From Candidatus Electronema halotolerans (GTDB lineage: Bacteria; Desulfobacterota; Desulfobulbia; Desulfobulbales; Desulfobulbaceae): a stretch of 32,000 nt of DNA. Of this stretch, positions 8,918 to 20,852 are shown in pieces; position 1 is the stretch's first letter; each line of letters opens with the position of its first letter. Both the position numbers and the translations under genes were made by a program. The DNA is taken from contig OW818675.1 in assembly GCA_942493095.1 (NCBI GenBank), positions 1,770,001-1,802,000 of the forward strand. Direction: 5' to 3'. The notes beneath the pieces are model-generated. The model did no database searches and was not told where the DNA came from. It was given only the letters and a program-made list of their open reading frames with translations.

Positions 8918-9063
8918 TATGCCTCCTTTTTATGCTCTTTCACCATTTTTTGGCTTGCGGCAGGCGGTGAAATATGTTAAAAAAAATTTCTCTATACAAT
9001 AGAACGCAGTGTCAATACAGGCATTTGGCCTCTGATAAAAGCATTTCAGCAAAGGAGAAGAAC

Positions 9064-9561
9064 ATGTTTAGTTTTGCAAAAAAAAACATACAGTTAGGCT
9101 GTATAGCTCTTGTTTTGTTCTGTTCATCCGCTGTCTTTGCTCAACCATTCGGTCTTAACAATGCAAAAAGGCTTATTGAGTACAACGATAAAATGATAGC
9201 ATTTTTTGCTCATCCTACAGTTGATCACATTAGCTGTGAGTTTGATGGTTCAAAAGAAATGTCTTCAGGTTTCAAGGTTCGGTATACTTTCAACTGGAAA
9301 AAAGATAACGGAGAAAGGCATTACAATACTTTCGATTTTTATTTTGATGATAACGCAAAAATTGCCGCCATCGATCCAGTTGATCAATCAAACATCATTC
9401 CTCCTTTTGTTGCGTCTGGATTGATATCAATTGTTGCAGACGGTATTTTTAACGAAATGTTGAAAGATACAGACTACACAAGAAGTCAATTGAAATCAAT
9501 ACTTGAAGATGGCGATTCCAAAGAAATCTTAACAGTGATTCTCAGAGCAAAGCAAAGATGA
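9064..9561 (+). CDS. Small secreted protein of unknown function (AT-rich orphan)
   Basis: The ATG at 9064 is preceded by AAGGAGAAG. The signal-peptide-like N-terminus is MFSFAKKNIQLGCIALVLFCSSAVFA/QP. I recognise no motif. G+C is low. Confidence 0.55.
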   Translation: MFSFAKKNIQLGCIALVLFCSSAVFAQPFGLNNAKRLIEYNDKMIAFFAHPTVDHISCEFDGSKEMSSGFKVRYTFNWKKDNGERHYNTFDFYFDDNAKIAAIDPVDQSNIIPPFVASGLISIVADGIFNEMLKDTDYTRSQLKSILEDGDSKEILTVILRAKQR

Positions 9562-9596
9562 CTTTTTTTGTTCCAAACGTTCCTGCGTTGGAACAG

Positions 9597-9781
9597 GTGA
9601 ATTCAAGTTCCAAGTGCAACTTTTTTTGGTTGCAAGAAAAGGCAGTTGCAGGAGCACTATACTTTTATGCTCTTACTAACTGCAAGAAAATAATATAAAA
9701 ATTTACATAAGGATGTAAAACGCCATACAATTTATGCTTTTTGGATAACCAAAAAAAGTTGCACTTGCGAGTTGAATCCGC
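9597..9781. repeat. 185-bp inverted-repeat (MITE-like or structured) element
   Basis: The arms are perfect 21-bp repeats: 9611-9631 (CAAGTGCAACTTTTTTTGGTT) and 9747-9767 (AACCAAAAAAAGTTGCACTTG). An imperfect extension runs outward to about 9597 and 9781 (GAATTCAAGTTC vs GAGTTGAATCC). The internal direct repeat TGCAAGAAAA occurs at 9631-9640 and 9681-9690. Confidence 0.6.
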
Positions 9782-9814
9782 ATTTCTTGTCAAGCAACGA
9801 GCCGCCTTGTCGGC

Positions 9815-9849
9815 CTGAAAAAAAGAAAGGCGGACCATATCGGTCCGCC
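9815..9849 (-). terminator. Rho-independent terminator of the hdr operon
   Basis: On the minus strand, GGCGGACC-gatat-GGTCCGCC (9849-9829) is followed by TTTCTTTTTTT (9828-9817). It sits 29 nt after the hdrB stop. Confidence 0.75.
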
Positions 9850-9877
9850 CAAATTGGATATTAGCTGTGCAGCTGTC

Positions 9878-10762
9878 TCAGAAATGCCGCAGGATGCTGT
9901 CGCGGGGAATTTTGGAGATGGCCGCGACTTTGTGCCCTTCAAAGCCCATGCACAGAGCCAGAAGCTGATTGTAATCAAAGACCGGAATCTTATAGATATC
10001 CTTGCCCGCCTTCTTGTTCAGCTTCTCCTGAATGTTGTCCATGTACATCAGACAGGTGATGCAGGAGACCACAATGAATTCGGCCTTGGTTTCGTTGAGA
10101 ATCGCATCCAGCTTGCTCTGGGTGAAGGCATCCGCCTCTGCCGGAGAAGTCTTGGCAAAGCCGCCCGCCCCGCCGCAGCACTGATACTCCATGCTGAAGG
10201 CATCCACGGTCGCGCCCAAGGCCTCGGTCAGGCGGCGCAGGGCTACTGGTCTCCGGGGCGACTCCTCAAAACCGACCACCTCACTGGGAAAAAGGGTGTG
10301 ACAGGGATACTGAACAATCCCGTGCATCCCGGTCAGCTTCTTCTTGATCTTGGCCGCGATTTTCTCTGGCCCGACCTCATTGTACAAAACATCAATAATA
10401 TGCCTGACCTTGGTCGTGCAGTTCACCTGCCGCCCGCTCGGTTCAAGCAGCTCGTTCACTCTGGCCCGCAAGGCCTTGTCCTCATGCAGATGCTCCAACC
10501 CCATCTGCAGGGAGCTGTAGCAGGAGCCGCACTGGACCATGATGTCATGGCCCTGCTCTTCAGCCAAGGAGATGTTCCAGCCGCTGGCGGCAAAATGGGA
10601 TTCATTGTCCGTGGAAGGAAAGGCACCAAAGGCCGGGCAGCAGACATAGCCGGGCAGATCGTGAAGCGGCACGCCCAGCGCAGGCATGGTCAGCCGGATT
10701 GCGCTTTCCACGTCCGGGCGGATGGCCGGCATGTTGCAGCCGGGAAAAAAGCAGAATTCCAT
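9878..10762 (-). CDS. hdrB: Heterodisulfide reductase subunit B-like (two CCG domains)
   Basis: MEFCFFPGCNMPAIRPDVE...YVCCPAFG and ...YPCHTLF...YQCCGGAGGF are CCG-domain cysteine patterns. The start overlaps the hdrC stop by 1 nt (TAATG). Confidence 0.85.
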   Translation of the reverse strand: MEFCFFPGCNMPAIRPDVESAIRLTMPALGVPLHDLPGYVCCPAFGAFPSTDNESHFAASGWNISLAEEQGHDIMVQCGSCYSSLQMGLEHLHEDKALRARVNELLEPSGRQVNCTTKVRHIIDVLYNEVGPEKIAAKIKKKLTGMHGIVQYPCHTLFPSEVVGFEESPRRPVALRRLTEALGATVDAFSMEYQCCGGAGGFAKTSPAEADAFTQSKLDAILNETKAEFIVVSCITCLMYMDNIQEKLNKKAGKDIYKIPVFDYNQLLALCMGFEGHKVAAISKIPRDSILRHF

Positions 10763-15983: not shown

Positions 15984-15993
15984 GGGGGGGGGG
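15984..15993. repeat. Homopolymeric G10 (C10 on the coding strand) tract in the mvhD leader
   Basis: Ten consecutive G lie 23-32 nt upstream of the mvhD ATG, just 5' of its RBS on the minus strand. Confidence 0.9.
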
Positions 15994-16086
15994 CGGTCAA
16001 TATTTAATAAGAAAAACAATCTTTTTTAATTATGGAAATCTCGAAAAGTTAGTGTTTTTTGCAGTTGTTGCTTTGTAACTGCCTGA

Positions 16087-18156
16087 TTATTCGATCACGA
16101 TTTCGGCAAGATCGGTAGGTGTTTTTTCGAGTATCCCATTTTTCAAAAAATATTTCTCTTCCTTCCCGTCCTCTGGGTTAAAAGAAGTAAATTTTTTCAA
16201 TTCAACTTCTTTTAATATTTTTTCGTTTGCAATTTTTTTGCAACTACAGCTTTCAGATGATTTTTCATTATTACTATCATCTTCCATGAAGGAAAAATTA
16301 AACACAGCTTCTATGCAATACTTTTCGTTTCTAGATTCTTTCTCATGCTTAATTTCGTTTATTTTGAAAAAGAAATTTTCAATTTTTAAAAAATCATCTT
16401 CTTCGTTTATAAATTTTATTTCTTTATATTTTTTAATGCGTTTAGTTTCTTCTTGGTTTCTAGTTTCAATATTAACCCTCGATAGTATTCTGCTTAACTC
16501 AAAAGTTCCATACTTATGGAATCCAGACAGTAAAATTATATCACCTTTTATGTTTTCATCGACATATCTTCCACTGCATATTATAAGGAGAGCAGCATCT
16601 CTTATCACGTTTCCTTCTCCATTTTCTTCAGGATTTCCAACATGCTGCTCTTTTTTGTCATTAATGTAAAAAATACCTGTATTTTTTACATCACTATTAT
16701 CACTTTCTATATATTTCCAATATTTACTTCTCGATTTGTATTTATGCAATGTTCTAAACTCAAATCTTTCTTTATCAGGATAAAGTTTTCTCATAAGTTG
16801 TTCGGCCGCTGGATTTATGCAGCTTGATCCAATTATGATGTAATCATCATAATGATATTTTTTATCTACAGAAAAAATTCTTTCAAGTTTTTCTTCATCA
16901 AATTTCTGACATGTTAATTCTTCATCTCCATTTTTTATATAATCAATAAGTTCAAGCATATCTAATTTGTAATGAAAAGGAATTCTCTCCTCAATAAATA
17001 AAATTTGATAAATAATTCTATTAAAAGCTGTAAAATCTTGAATACTTGTCCTGCTTCTTGTCTTTTTTCCATCTTCTTCTGGAAGGAGACAATCTACAGC
17101 ACCAATTATAAATTTTGTTTTCAGAAGCTGAAAATTTTTCCAAAAATTAAATTTTTGTTTATTTGCATCATCAATTCTTGCAACTTCGATATTTTCTATT
17201 TCAAGTTTTACTTTTAAATTTAAATCTGCTATATCGTTATATTTTATAATTCTTGCTGCTATGACATCAAAAGGAAGCCCAGCGAAATCTTTATTAGTTA
17301 AATATAAACAAGTTAAATCTTTCTGCAATTCAACATAGTTATTAACACGAAGGCCATGTATAAATCCAAGCCAGTAAAAAACCTCTGTGTTATTTTTTTC
17401 TGAAATATCAATAATACAGTATCTTGCCCTGCTTATATTGTGTATAATATTGGTAAATTTTTCTGAAGACGCAACCATTGCATCTTCAATAATATCATGT
17501 ATATCTTTGCAACTTAATTCAATCAGGTCATCGCCTGGAAAATGTAAATCTTTTATCCCTTTTCTTACTCCAAACTTATAAATTTCAGAGTAAGTTATCT
17601 GCTTGCTTTCAGATTTTTTCTTTGGGAGAATGCATATTATTGAATAAGATTTAAATCTTTCTTTACCACTGACAGATGGAATGACAAATTTAGCAGATTC
17701 AAACGAAAATATACTCTTTAAATCTCTTATTTTCGAGTAAGACCTTATGTCGCTTCTGACCGAAAGAAATTTAAGCCTTTTTTCTACTTTCTCTTTTTTT
17801 GCTAAATTTGAATTATATATAATAATAGTTTTTTTACTAAGAGCATGGGCTATTCCAATCTCGTAATATACATTTGGATTTCTTTCTGTAAGATCAGCAA
17901 TAATTAATGATGACTTGCGTATTTCTTCACATATTTTACATATCACATATTCTCCTCCTAAAAAATGCGCTTCCGTTATATTTTTACATTTCTTTTTGAT
18001 AGAAGAAAAATATTCTTTTATTCCAAATTTATAATAATCAAAATAAGGATTTTTAAAAGGCATTGCAACAAAAACTTTATCTTCATCTTCCTTTATATCT
18101 TTACTGCATGACTTTCCTGTCATGAAACATACTATTTTTTCATTACCACTCATCAC
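16087..18156 (-). CDS. 689-aa cytoplasmic protein: tandem nucleoside 2-deoxyribosyltransferase/TIR-like modules plus an uncharacterised ~350-aa C-terminal region
   Basis: This is an uninterrupted ORF in a 20-30 % G+C region (by eye), with AAGGAG RBS and no TM segment. Module 1 is VFVAMPF...SSLIIADLTERNPNVYYEIGIAHALSKKTIIIY. Module 2 is a degenerate copy, ARYCIIDISEKNNTEVFYWLGFIHGL. The domain call is by motif memory only. Confidence 0.7.
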   Translation of the reverse strand: MMSGNEKIVCFMTGKSCSKDIKEDEDKVFVAMPFKNPYFDYYKFGIKEYFSSIKKKCKNITEAHFLGGEYVICKICEEIRKSSLIIADLTERNPNVYYEIGIAHALSKKTIIIYNSNLAKKEKVEKRLKFLSVRSDIRSYSKIRDLKSIFSFESAKFVIPSVSGKERFKSYSIICILPKKKSESKQITYSEIYKFGVRKGIKDLHFPGDDLIELSCKDIHDIIEDAMVASSEKFTNIIHNISRARYCIIDISEKNNTEVFYWLGFIHGLRVNNYVELQKDLTCLYLTNKDFAGLPFDVIAARIIKYNDIADLNLKVKLEIENIEVARIDDANKQKFNFWKNFQLLKTKFIIGAVDCLLPEEDGKKTRSRTSIQDFTAFNRIIYQILFIEERIPFHYKLDMLELIDYIKNGDEELTCQKFDEEKLERIFSVDKKYHYDDYIIIGSSCINPAAEQLMRKLYPDKERFEFRTLHKYKSRSKYWKYIESDNSDVKNTGIFYINDKKEQHVGNPEENGEGNVIRDAALLIICSGRYVDENIKGDIILLSGFHKYGTFELSRILSRVNIETRNQEETKRIKKYKEIKFINEEDDFLKIENFFFKINEIKHEKESRNEKYCIEAVFNFSFMEDDSNNEKSSESCSCKKIANEKILKEVELKKFTSFNPEDGKEEKYFLKNGILEKTPTDLAEIVIE

Positions 18157-18177
18157 AGTCTCCTTTTTGCTGTAATT

Positions 18178-18582
18178 TTATAAACAAATAAAACTAATGA
18201 CAATAGACAGTGTTATAGAAAATAATATAACCCCATGAAAAGCAATTATCGTTTTTGAAGTTGTCACAGACAACCAAGAGTCTATTCTCTCTCTATCGCA
18301 AGAGATTTTCATAGAGAAATCTATTTCTTCCTCGGACATCATGCGAACATGTTCATAAATTTTTCTAAATATTCTTTCTTCATACAAAAAATATCCATCA
18401 AGCCCCCAGAAAACTAACGCTGGAAAATAAGAAATAACTAAAAACGAATATTTGCCTCCTTTTGCAAAGGCAAATATTGCAGAAATGAGAACAATGCTCC
18501 ATCCCTTCAATAAAAAGGAATTGGTGGAAAGTCTGTTAATTACTCCTTGAATCATCTGTAAATGAGCTATTTTGTTTGACAT
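18178..18582 (-). CDS. 134-aa three-TM membrane protein, first gene of the AT-rich pair
   Basis: The ATG at 18582 is preceded by AGAGGA (MSNKIAHLQMIQGVINRLSTNSFLLKGW...). Hydrophobic helices are WSIVLISAIFAFA, FLVISYFPALVFWGLDGYFL and IIAFHGVILFSITLSIVISFICL. It lies 21 nt upstream of the 689-aa gene. Confidence 0.65.
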   Translation of the reverse strand: MSNKIAHLQMIQGVINRLSTNSFLLKGWSIVLISAIFAFAKGGKYSFLVISYFPALVFWGLDGYFLYEERIFRKIYEHVRMMSEEEIDFSMKISCDRERIDSWLSVTTSKTIIAFHGVILFSITLSIVISFICL

Positions 18583-18617
18583 GCAGCTATCCTCTTTTTG
18601 TGGTTGAATATTTAACG

Positions 18618-18646
18618 ATAATACCTCATTCATTGGCACTGCTCAA
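18618..18646 (-). promoter_or_regulatory. Sigma70-like promoter for the AT-rich two-gene module
   Basis: On the minus strand, TTGAGC (18646-18641) is followed by a 17-nt spacer and TATTAT (18623-18618). This is about 35 nt upstream of the 18582 ATG. Confidence 0.35.
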
Positions 18647-18676
18647 TACCTGCTTTGTATAAAATTTTGATTCATT

Positions 18677-18811
18677 TCAAAATTTAACATCATAGAGAAA
18701 AACCGGCCATCTTCGCAACTGCAATTTTTTACCCAGTTTAACACCTCTTTCCTGCAAAGCCTGATAAATTTGGTCAGGAATTTGTAAGTTTTTGCTGGAC
18801 GATATTTTCAC
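18677..18811 (-). CDS. Possible 44-aa ORF (RHH/antitoxin-like N-terminus) or gene remnant
   Basis: The GTG at 18811 overlaps the upstream TGA (GTGA). That is the same coupling style as the three preceding genes. Product is VKISSSKNLQIPDQIYQALQERGVKLGKKLQLRRWPVFLYDVKF. It has no ATG and no clear RBS, and it is short. Confidence 0.25.
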   Translation of the reverse strand: MKISSSKNLQIPDQIYQALQERGVKLGKKLQLRRWPVFLYDVKF

Positions 18812-19311
18812 TGCATCAGCTTCTTGGGTCTGAGAAATACCGCCAAGTCAGCAGCCCCTTCAGCAAGTTCCCGCCAGAGGCATTCTTTCTTAATGACAAG
18901 CTGCACATAGCCGCAAGTGGGAATATTGTTCACTGCGCTGCCGCTGAGTTGATTGCAGAAATCTGTCAAAGCCTGATTGTGCCCGACAAGCAGCGGCTCG
19001 TGTGTCGACTCATCAAGCACTCTGCACCAATCCCAGATTGCCTTGCTCTCAAAGGTGTAAAGCTGCTCCACAGTCTGCCACTGCACCGCCGCTCCCGGCA
19101 ACCTGCTGCTGAGAAGCTCTATGGTTGCCTGCGCCCTGACCGCCGGGCTGCAAAAGACCTGCGCAAAACAGCAGCAGCCTGCCTCAGCAATATGCTGGGC
19201 CATGAAACCGCAGGTCTTCCTGCCGCGCTCATTCAGCGGCCTGTCAATATCCGCCAGCGAGGCATCCTCCCAACTTGACTTGGCATGACGCAGCAGATGA
19301 ATTTTCTTCAT
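18808..19311 (-). CDS. Histidine phosphatase superfamily protein (SixA/PGAM branch)
   Basis: MKKIHLLRHAKSSWEDASLADIDRPLNERGRK carries the RHG-type motif, and ...LLVGHNQALTDF carries the second catalytic His. The ATG at 19311 overlaps the upstream stop (ATGA), so I prefer it to the track start at 19359. Confidence 0.75.
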   Translation of the reverse strand: MKKIHLLRHAKSSWEDASLADIDRPLNERGRKTCGFMAQHIAEAGCCCFAQVFCSPAVRAQATIELLSSRLPGAAVQWQTVEQLYTFESKAIWDWCRVLDESTHEPLLVGHNQALTDFCNQLSGSAVNNIPTCGYVQLVIKKECLWRELAEGAADLAVFLRPKKLMQ

Positions 19312-19652
19312 GAATGCACTTTTTCCTCCTCCAGTCCTTGGCTGGTGCGCACAAACCAAGGCCGGGCAACTGCGTCAATATGAGCACGGAGCGGCGGATA
19401 TTTGATGCTGGCATAACTTTGCACATCTACTGAAAAAGGCAGGCAGCTTTCCTGAAACAAAGTCCAAAGACGGTCACATACTGCCTCATCAGCACTACCA
19501 TAGAGCACCAAATCCAGATCAGAATTATGTCGCTGGCGGCCCTGCGCACGTGAACCGAACACCGCCACCTGTTCAATGCGATCTTTCGCTGTAAGCAGAA
19601 TCTCCCGAACCAGTGCCCGCTGTGCCTTATTCAGACCAAAAGCATCGCTCAT
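19308..19652 (-). CDS. Minimal nucleotidyltransferase (MNT) of a HEPN/MNT module
   Basis: VAVFGSRAQGRQRHNSDLDLVLYG is the Pol-beta-fold GS...DxD motif. It has an ATGA overlap with the HEPN gene. Confidence 0.8.
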   Translation of the reverse strand: MSDAFGLNKAQRALVREILLTAKDRIEQVAVFGSRAQGRQRHNSDLDLVLYGSADEAVCDRLWTLFQESCLPFSVDVQSYASIKYPPLRAHIDAVARPWFVRTSQGLEEEKVHS

Positions 19653-20074
19653 AGCTCGCCTACTTCAATGCGCCGCACCAGCAAAAACTCGTGCAATTCA
19701 GTAAAGGCTGCCAGATAACTGCTGCGAATATCAGCAATCACCCGTTCAAAGGTCTCAAAGCTGTAGGTGTGCGACATGCGATTGCGGGCATCCAAGGCGT
19801 TCTGCCATGCCTCGCCCTGCTGGATGATGCCTGCCTCGAATGCTTGACGGATTACCGTGCGCGGCGTGATCTGGTTAAACACCACATTCTCGCTTTCCAG
19901 ATAATCCTTCAAGGTTTTCCAAGCAAGCTCCATCGTGTATTCAAACCGCTGAATCACGCCTTCCTTTTCTAATTGCGTCAACGGCTTTTCTTGTTCAACT
20001 GCCTCGCGCAGCAACGTGAAAGCGCGGCTGTAATTGTCAAATCGATACTGCCAGCGAGGAGTCGGGTCGGTCAT
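19649..20074 (-). CDS. HI0074-family nucleotidyltransferase substrate-binding (HEPN) protein
   Basis: RWQYRFDNYSRAFTLLREAVE...IQRFEYTMELAWKTLKDYL...ARNRMSHTY contains the Rx4H HEPN motif. The start is uncertain: ATG at 20074, or TTG at 20101 as in the ORF track. Confidence 0.8.
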   Translation of the reverse strand: MTDPTPRWQYRFDNYSRAFTLLREAVEQEKPLTQLEKEGVIQRFEYTMELAWKTLKDYLESENVVFNQITPRTVIRQAFEAGIIQQGEAWQNALDARNRMSHTYSFETFERVIADIRSSYLAAFTELHEFLLVRRIEVGEL

Positions 20075-20108
20075 GGAATCTGCTAAATTTAAATGTTTCA
20101 AAAGGTAT

Positions 20109-20852
20109 TTAATATTCAGTTGTCTCAGGAGAGTGCGAAGATAAAGTTGGCAATTCTAAATTTTTTGGTTTCATTCCAGCCACATGTAAGGCAATCTGCG
20201 CCTTTACTACGCTACGAATCTTAACATCTTCAATAGAAGCTACAACTGTTTCCGCACGTTCCAACTGTCGGTCATTTCGTAACCTATCATATAATTCAGT
20301 TGCTCTTTGCCGTGTCTGTTCTGCTTGTTTAAAGAAAAGAAATGCAACTGCATCAATTACTGCGCCAGGCAGTATTTTTATATATTCAACAAAATTTTTA
20401 TGATCAATACCAAGAGAAAAAAACAGTATCAATGCAAAACCAATTGTTGCAGCAGTTACACTAAACCAAAACTGAAACTTTGCCTGCGAAAGTGCTTGGC
20501 TATGATAATTATTTACTAATTTTTCTGCAAAACCGTTATTCTCGTCTGCTAATTGATGTATATGGATACCTCCATGCACTCTCAAACTACTTTGAAATTT
20601 TTTTTCAAATTCTTTAATATCGAGACCGTCAGGTAGTTTTTTGGCAATTTCCTCCAGTGCTCGTAATTTGGCCTCTTCTGTTTGTAAAAATGCTGTTTTT
20701 GCAATTTTACTTATATTTTCTTTTTCTAAATTATCTTCCTTGGATTTCTTTTTCGCCAAAAAAGATAAAATGAATCCGGCAATTATGGATAAAATCCCTA
20801 ATAATAGACCTGAAGACAAACCTGATACTACTACTATTTCGTCTATTGACAT
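20109..20852 (-). CDS. 247-aa membrane protein: N-terminal TM, charged coiled-coil, C-terminal 2-TM hairpin plus helical tail
   Basis: It is AT-rich. TM1 is VVVSGLSSGLLLGILSIIAGFILSFL. A K/E-rich helix follows. The hairpin reads QAKFQFWFSVTAATIGFALILFFSLGI...ILPGAVIDAVAFLFFKQAEQTRQRATELYDRL. I recall a similar pattern in SLATT and TRADD-N-associated 2-TM modules (low certainty). Confidence 0.65.
   Translation of the reverse strand: MSIDEIVVVSGLSSGLLLGILSIIAGFILSFLAKKKSKEDNLEKENISKIAKTAFLQTEEAKLRALEEIAKKLPDGLDIKEFEKKFQSSLRVHGGIHIHQLADENNGFAEKLVNNYHSQALSQAKFQFWFSVTAATIGFALILFFSLGIDHKNFVEYIKILPGAVIDAVAFLFFKQAEQTRQRATELYDRLRNDRQLERAETVVASIEDVKIRSVVKAQIALHVAGMKPKNLELPTLSSHSPETTEY

Follow-up and report, generated by a model that had tools for sequence, protein, structure and literature searches.

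The gene pair and its composition

A two-gene module on the minus strand of a 32,000-nt stretch of DNA (the window) from Candidatus Electronema halotolerans, a cable bacterium, was analysed as a candidate anti-phage cassette. Coordinates are window positions, and residues of the large protein are numbered throughout on its 689-amino-acid (aa) open reading frame (ORF). An earlier note, made from the sequence alone, had described two minus-strand genes in the same orientation, 21 nt apart and with AAGGAG before the second, and all of these were found in place: the ORF list holds a small ORF (18178–18639) and a large one (16087–18156), with a gap of 21 nt between the small and large genes. The module comprises the following features.

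18618–18646, minus strand: promoter-like TTGAGC-N17-TATTAT ahead of the gene pair, a 9/12 match and a candidate only
18591–18596, minus strand: AAGAGG ribosome-binding site of the small gene, 8 nt before the ATG, read from the sequence
18178–18582, minus strand: small membrane protein of the PDC-M50A family, predicted effector, 134 aa from ATG 18582
18160–18165, minus strand: AAGGAG ribosome-binding site of the large gene, 3 nt from GTG 18156 and 6 nt from ATG 18153
16087–18156, minus strand: large protein with a Cys cluster, a tandem NDT/DNPH1-fold head and an orphan C-terminal domain, 689 aa from GTG and 688 from ATG
17677–18156, minus strand: aa 1–160 of the large protein, Cys pairs and domain 1 with Y97-Y98-E99-x-G101 (from Foldseek, family profile and conservation)
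17221–17655, minus strand: aa 168–312, domain 2, the Glu-less copy with Trp262 (from hhalign against domain 1 and conservation)
16090–17139, minus strand: aa 340–689, orphan alpha/beta domain, proposed infection sensor (from a model and null fold and sequence searches)

The G+C content of the module was found to be 28.9%, against 58.4% on the side of the hdr operon and 54% on the opposite flank, with the low-G+C block spanning approximately 16000–18750. The AT-rich block reported in the earlier note was confirmed, but the range of 18–25% G+C given for its 60-nt lines holds for just 26% of them, the median line having 30%. An ORF of 689 codons with homologues far exceeds chance in DNA of 29% G+C. 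The promoter-like sequence also exists where it had been placed, although such sites are no commoner in the region than chance allows (18 found, with 14.6 ± 3.9 expected from shuffled sequence). The small ORF encodes 153 aa from a GTG and 134 aa from the ATG at 18582, and the 134-aa form is the likely product because it has its own AAGAGG, agrees with the start of the family profile (the PDC-M50A match begins at aa 20 of the 153-aa ORF) and falls within the usual family length of 132–139 aa; the same start is favoured by the position of the promoter-like site. The true start of the large gene is probably ATG 18153 and not GTG 18156, because of the better spacing from AAGGAG and the 688-aa copies held in databases.

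Apart from short AT-rich chance repeats, no direct or inverted repeats were found to bound the module, no tRNA search having been made. The comparison with sister genomes for an empty site gave just one 1.3-kb contig, with an identical flpD gene, and the sole candidate for an intrinsic terminator after the large gene lies on the wrong strand. A terminator-like scan also gave a 13-pair hairpin with a T-rich tail within the coding region of the small gene (18447–18478, minus strand), which could be a chance product of AT-rich sequence. A run of about 10 C (approximately 15985–15995) separates the AT-rich block from the start of flpD/mvhD (15961) and marks the composition boundary. The genes flanking the pair are metabolic, namely the hdr/flpD operon and a histidine phosphatase. 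The HdrA-like and formate-dehydrogenase-like proteins of the flanks agree exactly with proteins of Ca. Electronema halotolerans.

The membrane protein and its large partner

The small protein was matched to the PADLOC family PDC-M50A by the profile PDLC04686 (E 8e-45) and by three more PDC-M50A profiles, PDC standing for 'phage defence candidate' in PADLOC, and it gave no Pfam match even at E 10 and no NCBIfam match. Strong hydrophobic segments were found at aa 22–40 and 111–129; the third of the three hydrophobic helices described earlier (aa 43–61, Kyte-Doolittle value 1.22) is weaker and not certain, and three transmembrane helices are plausible from the sequence. The invariant motifs of the family are N-R...S-F-L-K-G-W and F-W-L-D-G-F-L. 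PDC-M50A relatives were found in more than 2,171 clusters, in at least 512 species genomes of many phyla and on eight viral contigs (IMG/VR, L098–L105). Among the best 80 genomic loci, which were surveyed for their neighbourhoods, a same-strand gene lies just downstream of PDC-M50A in 66, and its product matched ThsB_TIR in 48 of these 66 and TIR_2 in 9; upstream, the 80 loci carry 10 TIR_2 proteins and many restriction-modification genes. With these numbers, PDC-M50A followed by a ThsB-type TIR gene (L008 and L009 being typical loci) is considered the canonical operon, and the 689-aa protein of the window holds the position where ThsB normally stands after PDC-M50A. In L009, the ThsB encoded next to PDC-M50A shares 40% identity (E 4e-31) with one of the '3TM'-associated TIRs that Yirmiya et al. 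2025 (10.64898/2025.12.03.692087) give in their Table S1, which suggests that PDC-M50A is plausibly the '3TM' Thoeris effector class of those authors, the comparison being made through the partner TIR and not through effector sequences. Homology of PDC-M50A to 8xMP was also considered and could not be demonstrated (hhalign probability 2%), and a literature search on PDC-M50 and 8xMP (PF24838) found nothing relevant.

For the large protein, an AlphaFold2 model (pLDDT 71, pTM 0.67), for which the family alignment was used, was matched by Foldseek to many DNPH1/Rcl and nucleoside 2-deoxyribosyltransferase (NDT) structures, with a probability of 1.0, target-normalised TM-scores of 0.5–0.71 and E-values of 2e-3 to 3e-2; its sole TIR-NLR match had a TM-score of 0.14–0.17. 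On this model the head has a Rossmannoid NDT/DNPH1-like fold. The peptides quoted in the earlier note are present, VFVAMPF at aa 28–34, SSLIIADLTERNPNVYYEIGIAHALSKKTIIIY at 82–114 and ARYCIIDISEKNNTEVFYWLGFIHGL at 244–269. The family profile 'aDlsekNpNvyYElGlAHalgk' aligns to Rcl 'AEVTQPSLGVGYELGRAVALGK', which puts Glu99 on the Glu of Rcl 'GYELG'; the Glu of the Y-E-L-G motif of DNPH1 is the catalytic nucleophile of that family. When residues 24–160 were aligned to residues 168–312 with hhalign (probability 95.9%, E 6.3e-9, 110 columns), Glu99 fell opposite Trp262, so that the head is a genuine tandem duplication in which just one of the two copies bears the nucleophile. In the 12 full-length members used for conservation, which go down to 29% identity, the invariant residues are Y97, Y98, E99 and G101 in domain 1 and Y246, W262, G264, F265, H267, G268, Y285, P295, F296 and D297 in domain 2. 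The repeat with Trp for Glu had been called degenerate; the duplication itself stood, but domain 2 is not the more degenerate copy and is the best conserved part of the family, which argues for a function of its own. Two pairs of cysteines are also conserved, C10 with C17 (CX6C) and C73 with C76 (CxxC), and these four may bind metal, to judge from their pattern.

Sequence profiles of Pfam and PADLOC gave only below-threshold matches to the large protein, all at approximately residues 74–117, and NCBIfam gave none. Pfam Nuc_deoxyrib_tr (PF05014) was matched with an E-value of 0.014 and 16 bits, below its gathering cut-off of 28.8, and likewise below threshold in 8 of the 12 family members (best E 1.2e-4). 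CAP12-PCTIR_TIR (PF10137) was matched in 2 of the 12 at an E-value of about 0.09, and none of the 12 gave a Pfam match to TIR, TIR_2 or ThsB_TIR. Homology of the head to the ThsB_TIR proteins associated with PDC-M50 was tried with hhalign and could not be demonstrated (probability 0.1%). A PADLOC check, which the earlier note had proposed, returned PDC-M50A for the small gene and for the large gene only the 'TIR effector' model PDLC00733 below threshold (E 3e-4, compared with 1e-12 in the related protein P0013). The earlier assignment to NDT/TIR-like domains therefore holds for the NDT/DNPH1 fold and not for the TIR family, by any test made. Failing the TIR tests and lying below the NDT cut-off, the head is best filed as working like an enzyme in the ThsB position with an NDT/DNPH1-type fold.

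Other arrangements of the head were also found. In P0013, a tandem head with an active and a Glu-less copy lies between a receiver domain and a CHAT protease. Single-copy head domains with 'NPNVFYE.GIAHALGK' and 'PFDLR', the latter retained in domain 2, occur in plasmid 'hypothetical proteins' of Serratia, Acidithiobacillus and Bacillus (L095, L096 and L097), where the pattern reads MPF ... NPNV[FY]YE.GIAHALGK ... PFDL. The Bacillus albus plasmid (L097:3199-4402) has its single-copy head after a transmembrane helix and a coiled coil, with an overlapping gene for four transmembrane segments upstream, and the A. caldus plasmid p1 carries two near-identical single-copy head genes.

The C-terminal domain, modelled alone, gave a confident alpha/beta structure (pLDDT 74.7, pTM 0.82). 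The earlier note had placed no motif in the last ~350 aa, and the searches agreed with it: the fold had no credible match in the PDB (best E 0.36, TM-score <0.25) or in a viral structure library (best E 0.28), and no Pfam match was obtained. A sequence profile also hit serine palmitoyltransferase in the PDB (E 0.11), which was taken to be a chance match. By sequence, the domain is unrelated to domains 1 and 2, and it is also unrelated to the CHAT domain of P0013. An exhaustive HMMER search of 1.84 billion representative proteins with the C-terminal profile returned 24 proteins, all of them either of about 700 aa with the same architecture and position or fragments, and the domain is for this reason regarded as exclusive to the large-protein family.

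Homologous loci, distribution and neighbouring genes

The genes adjacent to homologues of the large protein were found to vary from locus to locus, as follows.

L007: PDC-M50A 89% identical to the small protein, with overlapping stop and start codons; large protein 64% identical
JGI contig with P0001/P0014: PDC-M50A beside the homologue
L003 and L004: Pfam 8xMP (PF24838) 'octameric membrane protein' (E 1e-39), directly upstream or beside
L006: DUF4231/SLATT (E 1e-20), directly upstream or beside
L002: ORF of 109 aa with three transmembrane segments, upstream of the homologue
L001: TIR-like gene, ThsB_TIR gene and SIR2-STALD (ThsA-like) gene beside the homologue
L005, L012, L013 and L014: without an adjacent membrane or effector gene
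L011: partner side cut by the contig end

Two points that the earlier note had put up for checking found support here: the membrane gene is a conserved partner, as in L007, which keeps the pair, and relatives sit among defence genes, as the surroundings of the large-protein homologues show (L001 and others). Signalling defence systems show this pattern of an unchanging enzyme whose adjacent effector is swapped, here among membrane proteins of unrelated families and a NADase of the ThsA type. Against this, the large protein may act alone, since 4 of about 12 loci are without a partner.

Several details of these loci were noted. In L001 (L001:176-5704), the homologue lies in a same-strand array after genes for a 348-aa weakly TIR/NDT-like protein, a ThsB_TIR protein and a SIR2-STALD protein, a locus like Thoeris type I with an unusual enzyme added. 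In L002 (L002:5923-8657), the large gene is broken into three ORFs in a row (112, 392 and 301 aa), representing a decaying copy or an assembly error. An AAA_15/AAA_21 ATPase gene followed by a gene for about 200 aa lies beside the homologue in two unrelated contigs (L011:2711-4677 and L012:3201-5056), and L012 also has a STAND-type NTPase downstream; these two genes may recur as companions of the homologue or form a defence system of their own. Defence-type neighbours are present in L012, in L011 and in the window itself.

The large-protein family is extremely sparse, with 13 relatives among 5.8 billion clusters and about 20 homologues known overall. No relative was found in 185,579 species-representative genomes (GTDB) and two were found in metagenome contigs, while phage records and viral contigs held no full-length relative and plasmids gave only the single-domain matches to the head. 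The named sources are Ca. Electrothrix sp. AR1, Ca. Magnetobacterium bavaricum and a Peribacteraceae metagenome-assembled genome, and the protein of the window is deposited only as 'hypothetical protein GCAAIG_07865' of Ca. Electronema halotolerans. In L006, L007, L012 and L013, the gene or the pair has a G+C content of about 30%, compared with 50–58% in the flanks, and the pair of L007 sits after gyrB, not beside hdr. The pair behaves, from its sequence and setting, as a mobile cassette. The gyrB upstream of the L007 cassette (L007:4229-7207) carries an intein.

Further genes of a conflict type lie near the module. A second low-G+C patch (32–40%) encodes a 247-aa protein at 20109–20852 (minus strand) with a 'Cyanobacterial TRADD-N associated 2-TM' domain (E 7e-12), and a pair of genes for a nucleotidyltransferase (NTase) and an NTase-substrate-binding (HEPN-like) protein, at 19308–19652 and 19649–20101 (minus strand), adjoins it. 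These conflict-type genes sit 1–2 kb from the module, and with the module included, 16–21 kb has the look of a small island of conflict genes, bordered by the hdr operon and a serA-like gene. Elsewhere in the window, a low-G+C patch at 1501–2000 (33%) lies within a methyltransferase ORF (1376–2275), and another at 9001–10000 (36–42%) holds an ORF of 195 aa (8974–9561) without a Pfam match.

A proposed Thoeris-like cassette and the alternatives

The closest named relative of the module is PDC-M50. Its first gene in the window is PDC-M50A, and the order of a membrane gene then an enzyme gene, on the same strand and tightly spaced, is shared, whereas the second gene encodes the 689-aa protein with its tandem head and orphan domain in place of a ThsB TIR of about 150 aa; the partner test used here is a comparison with these usual neighbours and not with a PDC-M50B profile, and the large protein gave no match to the PADLOC PDC-M50 profiles at E <1. 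About 29 Thoeris configurations are given by Yirmiya et al. 2025 (10.64898/2025.12.03.692087), whose validated ones include TIR with the 3-transmembrane DUF2270 (type V) and TIR with SLATT (type VII), both with small oligomeric membrane effectors; the '3TM' effector class of their Table S1 is not among the validated ones. The module resembles types V and VII (ThsB with the DUF2270 protein ThsF, or with the SLATT protein ThsH) in its two-gene logic of an enzyme and a small membrane effector, and one large-protein homologue has a genuine DUF4231/SLATT partner (L006), another standing next to SIR2-STALD ThsA and ThsB (L001). The module differs from types V and VII in that Pfam places its membrane protein in neither DUF2270 nor SLATT and the enzyme is not a recognisable TIR; by the tests made, the large protein is not a TIR signal producer (ThsB). 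The small protein likewise gave no match to the Pfam profiles for SLATT/DUF4231 and 8xMP, families that occupy its position beside other large-protein homologues. Among the effectors found next to these homologues, SLATT is of a validated Thoeris class and SIR2-STALD is also present, while PDC-M50A is a TIR-associated candidate. With ThsI (type VIII, 'CMP hydrolase and TPR'), DNPH1/Rcl and NDT, the head shares a Rossmannoid glycosidase fold and a Glu in Y-E-x-G at the equivalent position; it differs from them in its tandem arrangement with a Glu-less copy, in the fused 4-Cys element and orphan domain and in falling under the Pfam threshold, and from ThsI also in that the NDT-fold protein stands in the position of the signal maker and not of the effector. 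The likeness to CBASS Cap12 and Pycsar PycTIR (PF10137; PDLC00733) is a weak, repeated similarity around '...NPNV.YE.G.A.ALGK', and the differences are the overall architecture, the below-threshold matches and the absence of an adjacent cyclase in the window, where the neighbours adjoining the large gene or the pair are PDC-M50A, flpD/hdr and the histidine phosphatase. The earlier note had found no named system for the pair; that view is only half right, given the match to PDC-M50A, a family usually followed by a ThsB TIR, while its account of the anatomy and of the likely biological role was largely right. With PDC-M50A and a Thoeris-like logic, the cassette counts as a variant within a recognised class of systems; it is not entirely undescribed.

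The explanation preferred here is that the two genes were acquired horizontally and form an anti-phage cassette of the Thoeris kind, with a non-TIR glycosidase-fold protein replacing ThsB; from gene context and predicted fold, it was given an even chance of being correct. If the pair is defensive as proposed, the orphan C-terminal domain of the 689-aa protein would recognise an infection cue. The tandem head, once activated, would act as a built-in pseudo-dimer, in which domain 1 gives the nucleophilic Glu99 and domain 2 completes or regulates the pocket, by analogy with dimeric NDT/DNPH1 enzymes, which have composite active sites. The head would cleave the N-glycosidic bond of NAD+ or of another nucleotide to yield a small-molecule signal, and this signal would cause the membrane protein to oligomerise or open, with the membrane collapsing and the infection being aborted. 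The more specific proposal, that a non-TIR NDT/DNPH1-type enzyme with an active/inactive pseudo-dimer and an orphan sensor is the signal generator for the PDC-M50A, 8xMP, SLATT and SIR2-STALD effectors, is tentative. Several observations weigh against a Thoeris-kind signalling role. The NDT-fold 'CMP hydrolase' of type VIII Thoeris is an effector and not a signal maker (10.64898/2025.12.03.692087), and no precedent was found for signal production by an NDT-fold enzyme. All matches of the head to NDT/TIR-like families fall under curated thresholds, and the head is not demonstrably TIR either by Pfam or by hhalign against ThsB. Moreover, 4 of about 12 loci (L005, L012, L013 and L014) have no adjacent membrane or effector gene, and the partner statistics are weak, with short contigs and a tiny family.

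The large protein could instead be a self-contained depleting effector, sensing through its C-terminus and killing through Glu99-dependent hydrolysis of the NAD+ or nucleotide pool, in the manner of Cap12/PycTIR, of the DUF4062 'Swarozyc' NADases or of ThsI/DNPH1-type hydrolases; in that case the membrane protein would receive no signal and would serve as an anchor, a regulator or an optional additional effector. This account is possible, though rather doubtful, and it is kept alive mainly by the four solitary loci. It also agrees with the effector role of the NDT-fold enzyme in type VIII, with the sole PADLOC match of the head, to a CBASS 'TIR effector' model, stronger in P0013, and with the weak Pfam matches to CAP12-PCTIR_TIR; moreover, stand-alone TIR-like NADases that sense phage proteins directly have been described (10.64898/2026.05.01.722283). 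However, the gene directly upstream encodes a membrane protein (of three unrelated families) or a ThsA-like effector in 7–8 of about 12 loci, the two genes overlap at their stop and start codons or are separated by 21 nt, and PDC-M50A and SLATT elsewhere partner signal-producing ThsB TIRs. A reversed flow of information, in which the tandem head binds a nucleotide signal made elsewhere, as SLOG and SAVED do, and the C-terminal domain or the membrane protein is the output, is improbable. The invariance of Glu99 and of the YYE.G motif down to 29% identity argues for catalysis, and no signal-producing enzyme is adjacent in the window, even though the combination of tandem head, CHAT protease and receiver domain in P0013 is reminiscent of sensor-protease effectors, the Glu-less domain 2 is the most conserved and L001 already has two TIR-type genes. 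It is more improbable still that the pair has no immune role, being an unrelated adjacency or an AT-rich housekeeping function in nucleotide salvage or at the membrane. The metabolic flanking genes and a promoter match no better than chance would suit such a view, but the pair persists with coupled spacing where the proteins have diverged by 36% and the chromosomal site is another, its composition is foreign in several hosts, the large protein is patchy and extremely sparse, the family of the small protein is strongly linked to TIR genes and restriction-modification neighbourhoods, and the conflict-type 2-TM gene and NTase/HEPN-like pair lie close by.

Thoeris-type immunity is at present defined by TIR domains as the signal makers. 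Should the Thoeris-kind cassette with a non-TIR enzyme prove true, a second glycosidase scaffold would have given rise to immune nucleotide signalling, perhaps through a new signal molecule, and small oligomeric membrane proteins, SLATT and SIR2-SLOG effectors would be drivable by another glycosidase fold, widening the search for signalling enzymes and signals. The orphan 350-aa domain would possibly be a new kind of infection sensor. Were the large protein a self-contained NADase or nucleotidase instead, it would be a new but more ordinary abortive-infection effector. The literature searches found no paper on a specific immune module of this kind in cable bacteria, and the signalling cassette, if true, would be among the first specific immune modules pointed out in these organisms; it would also give a first functional handle on PDC-M50A, a membrane family of many host genomes that has only 'candidate' status.

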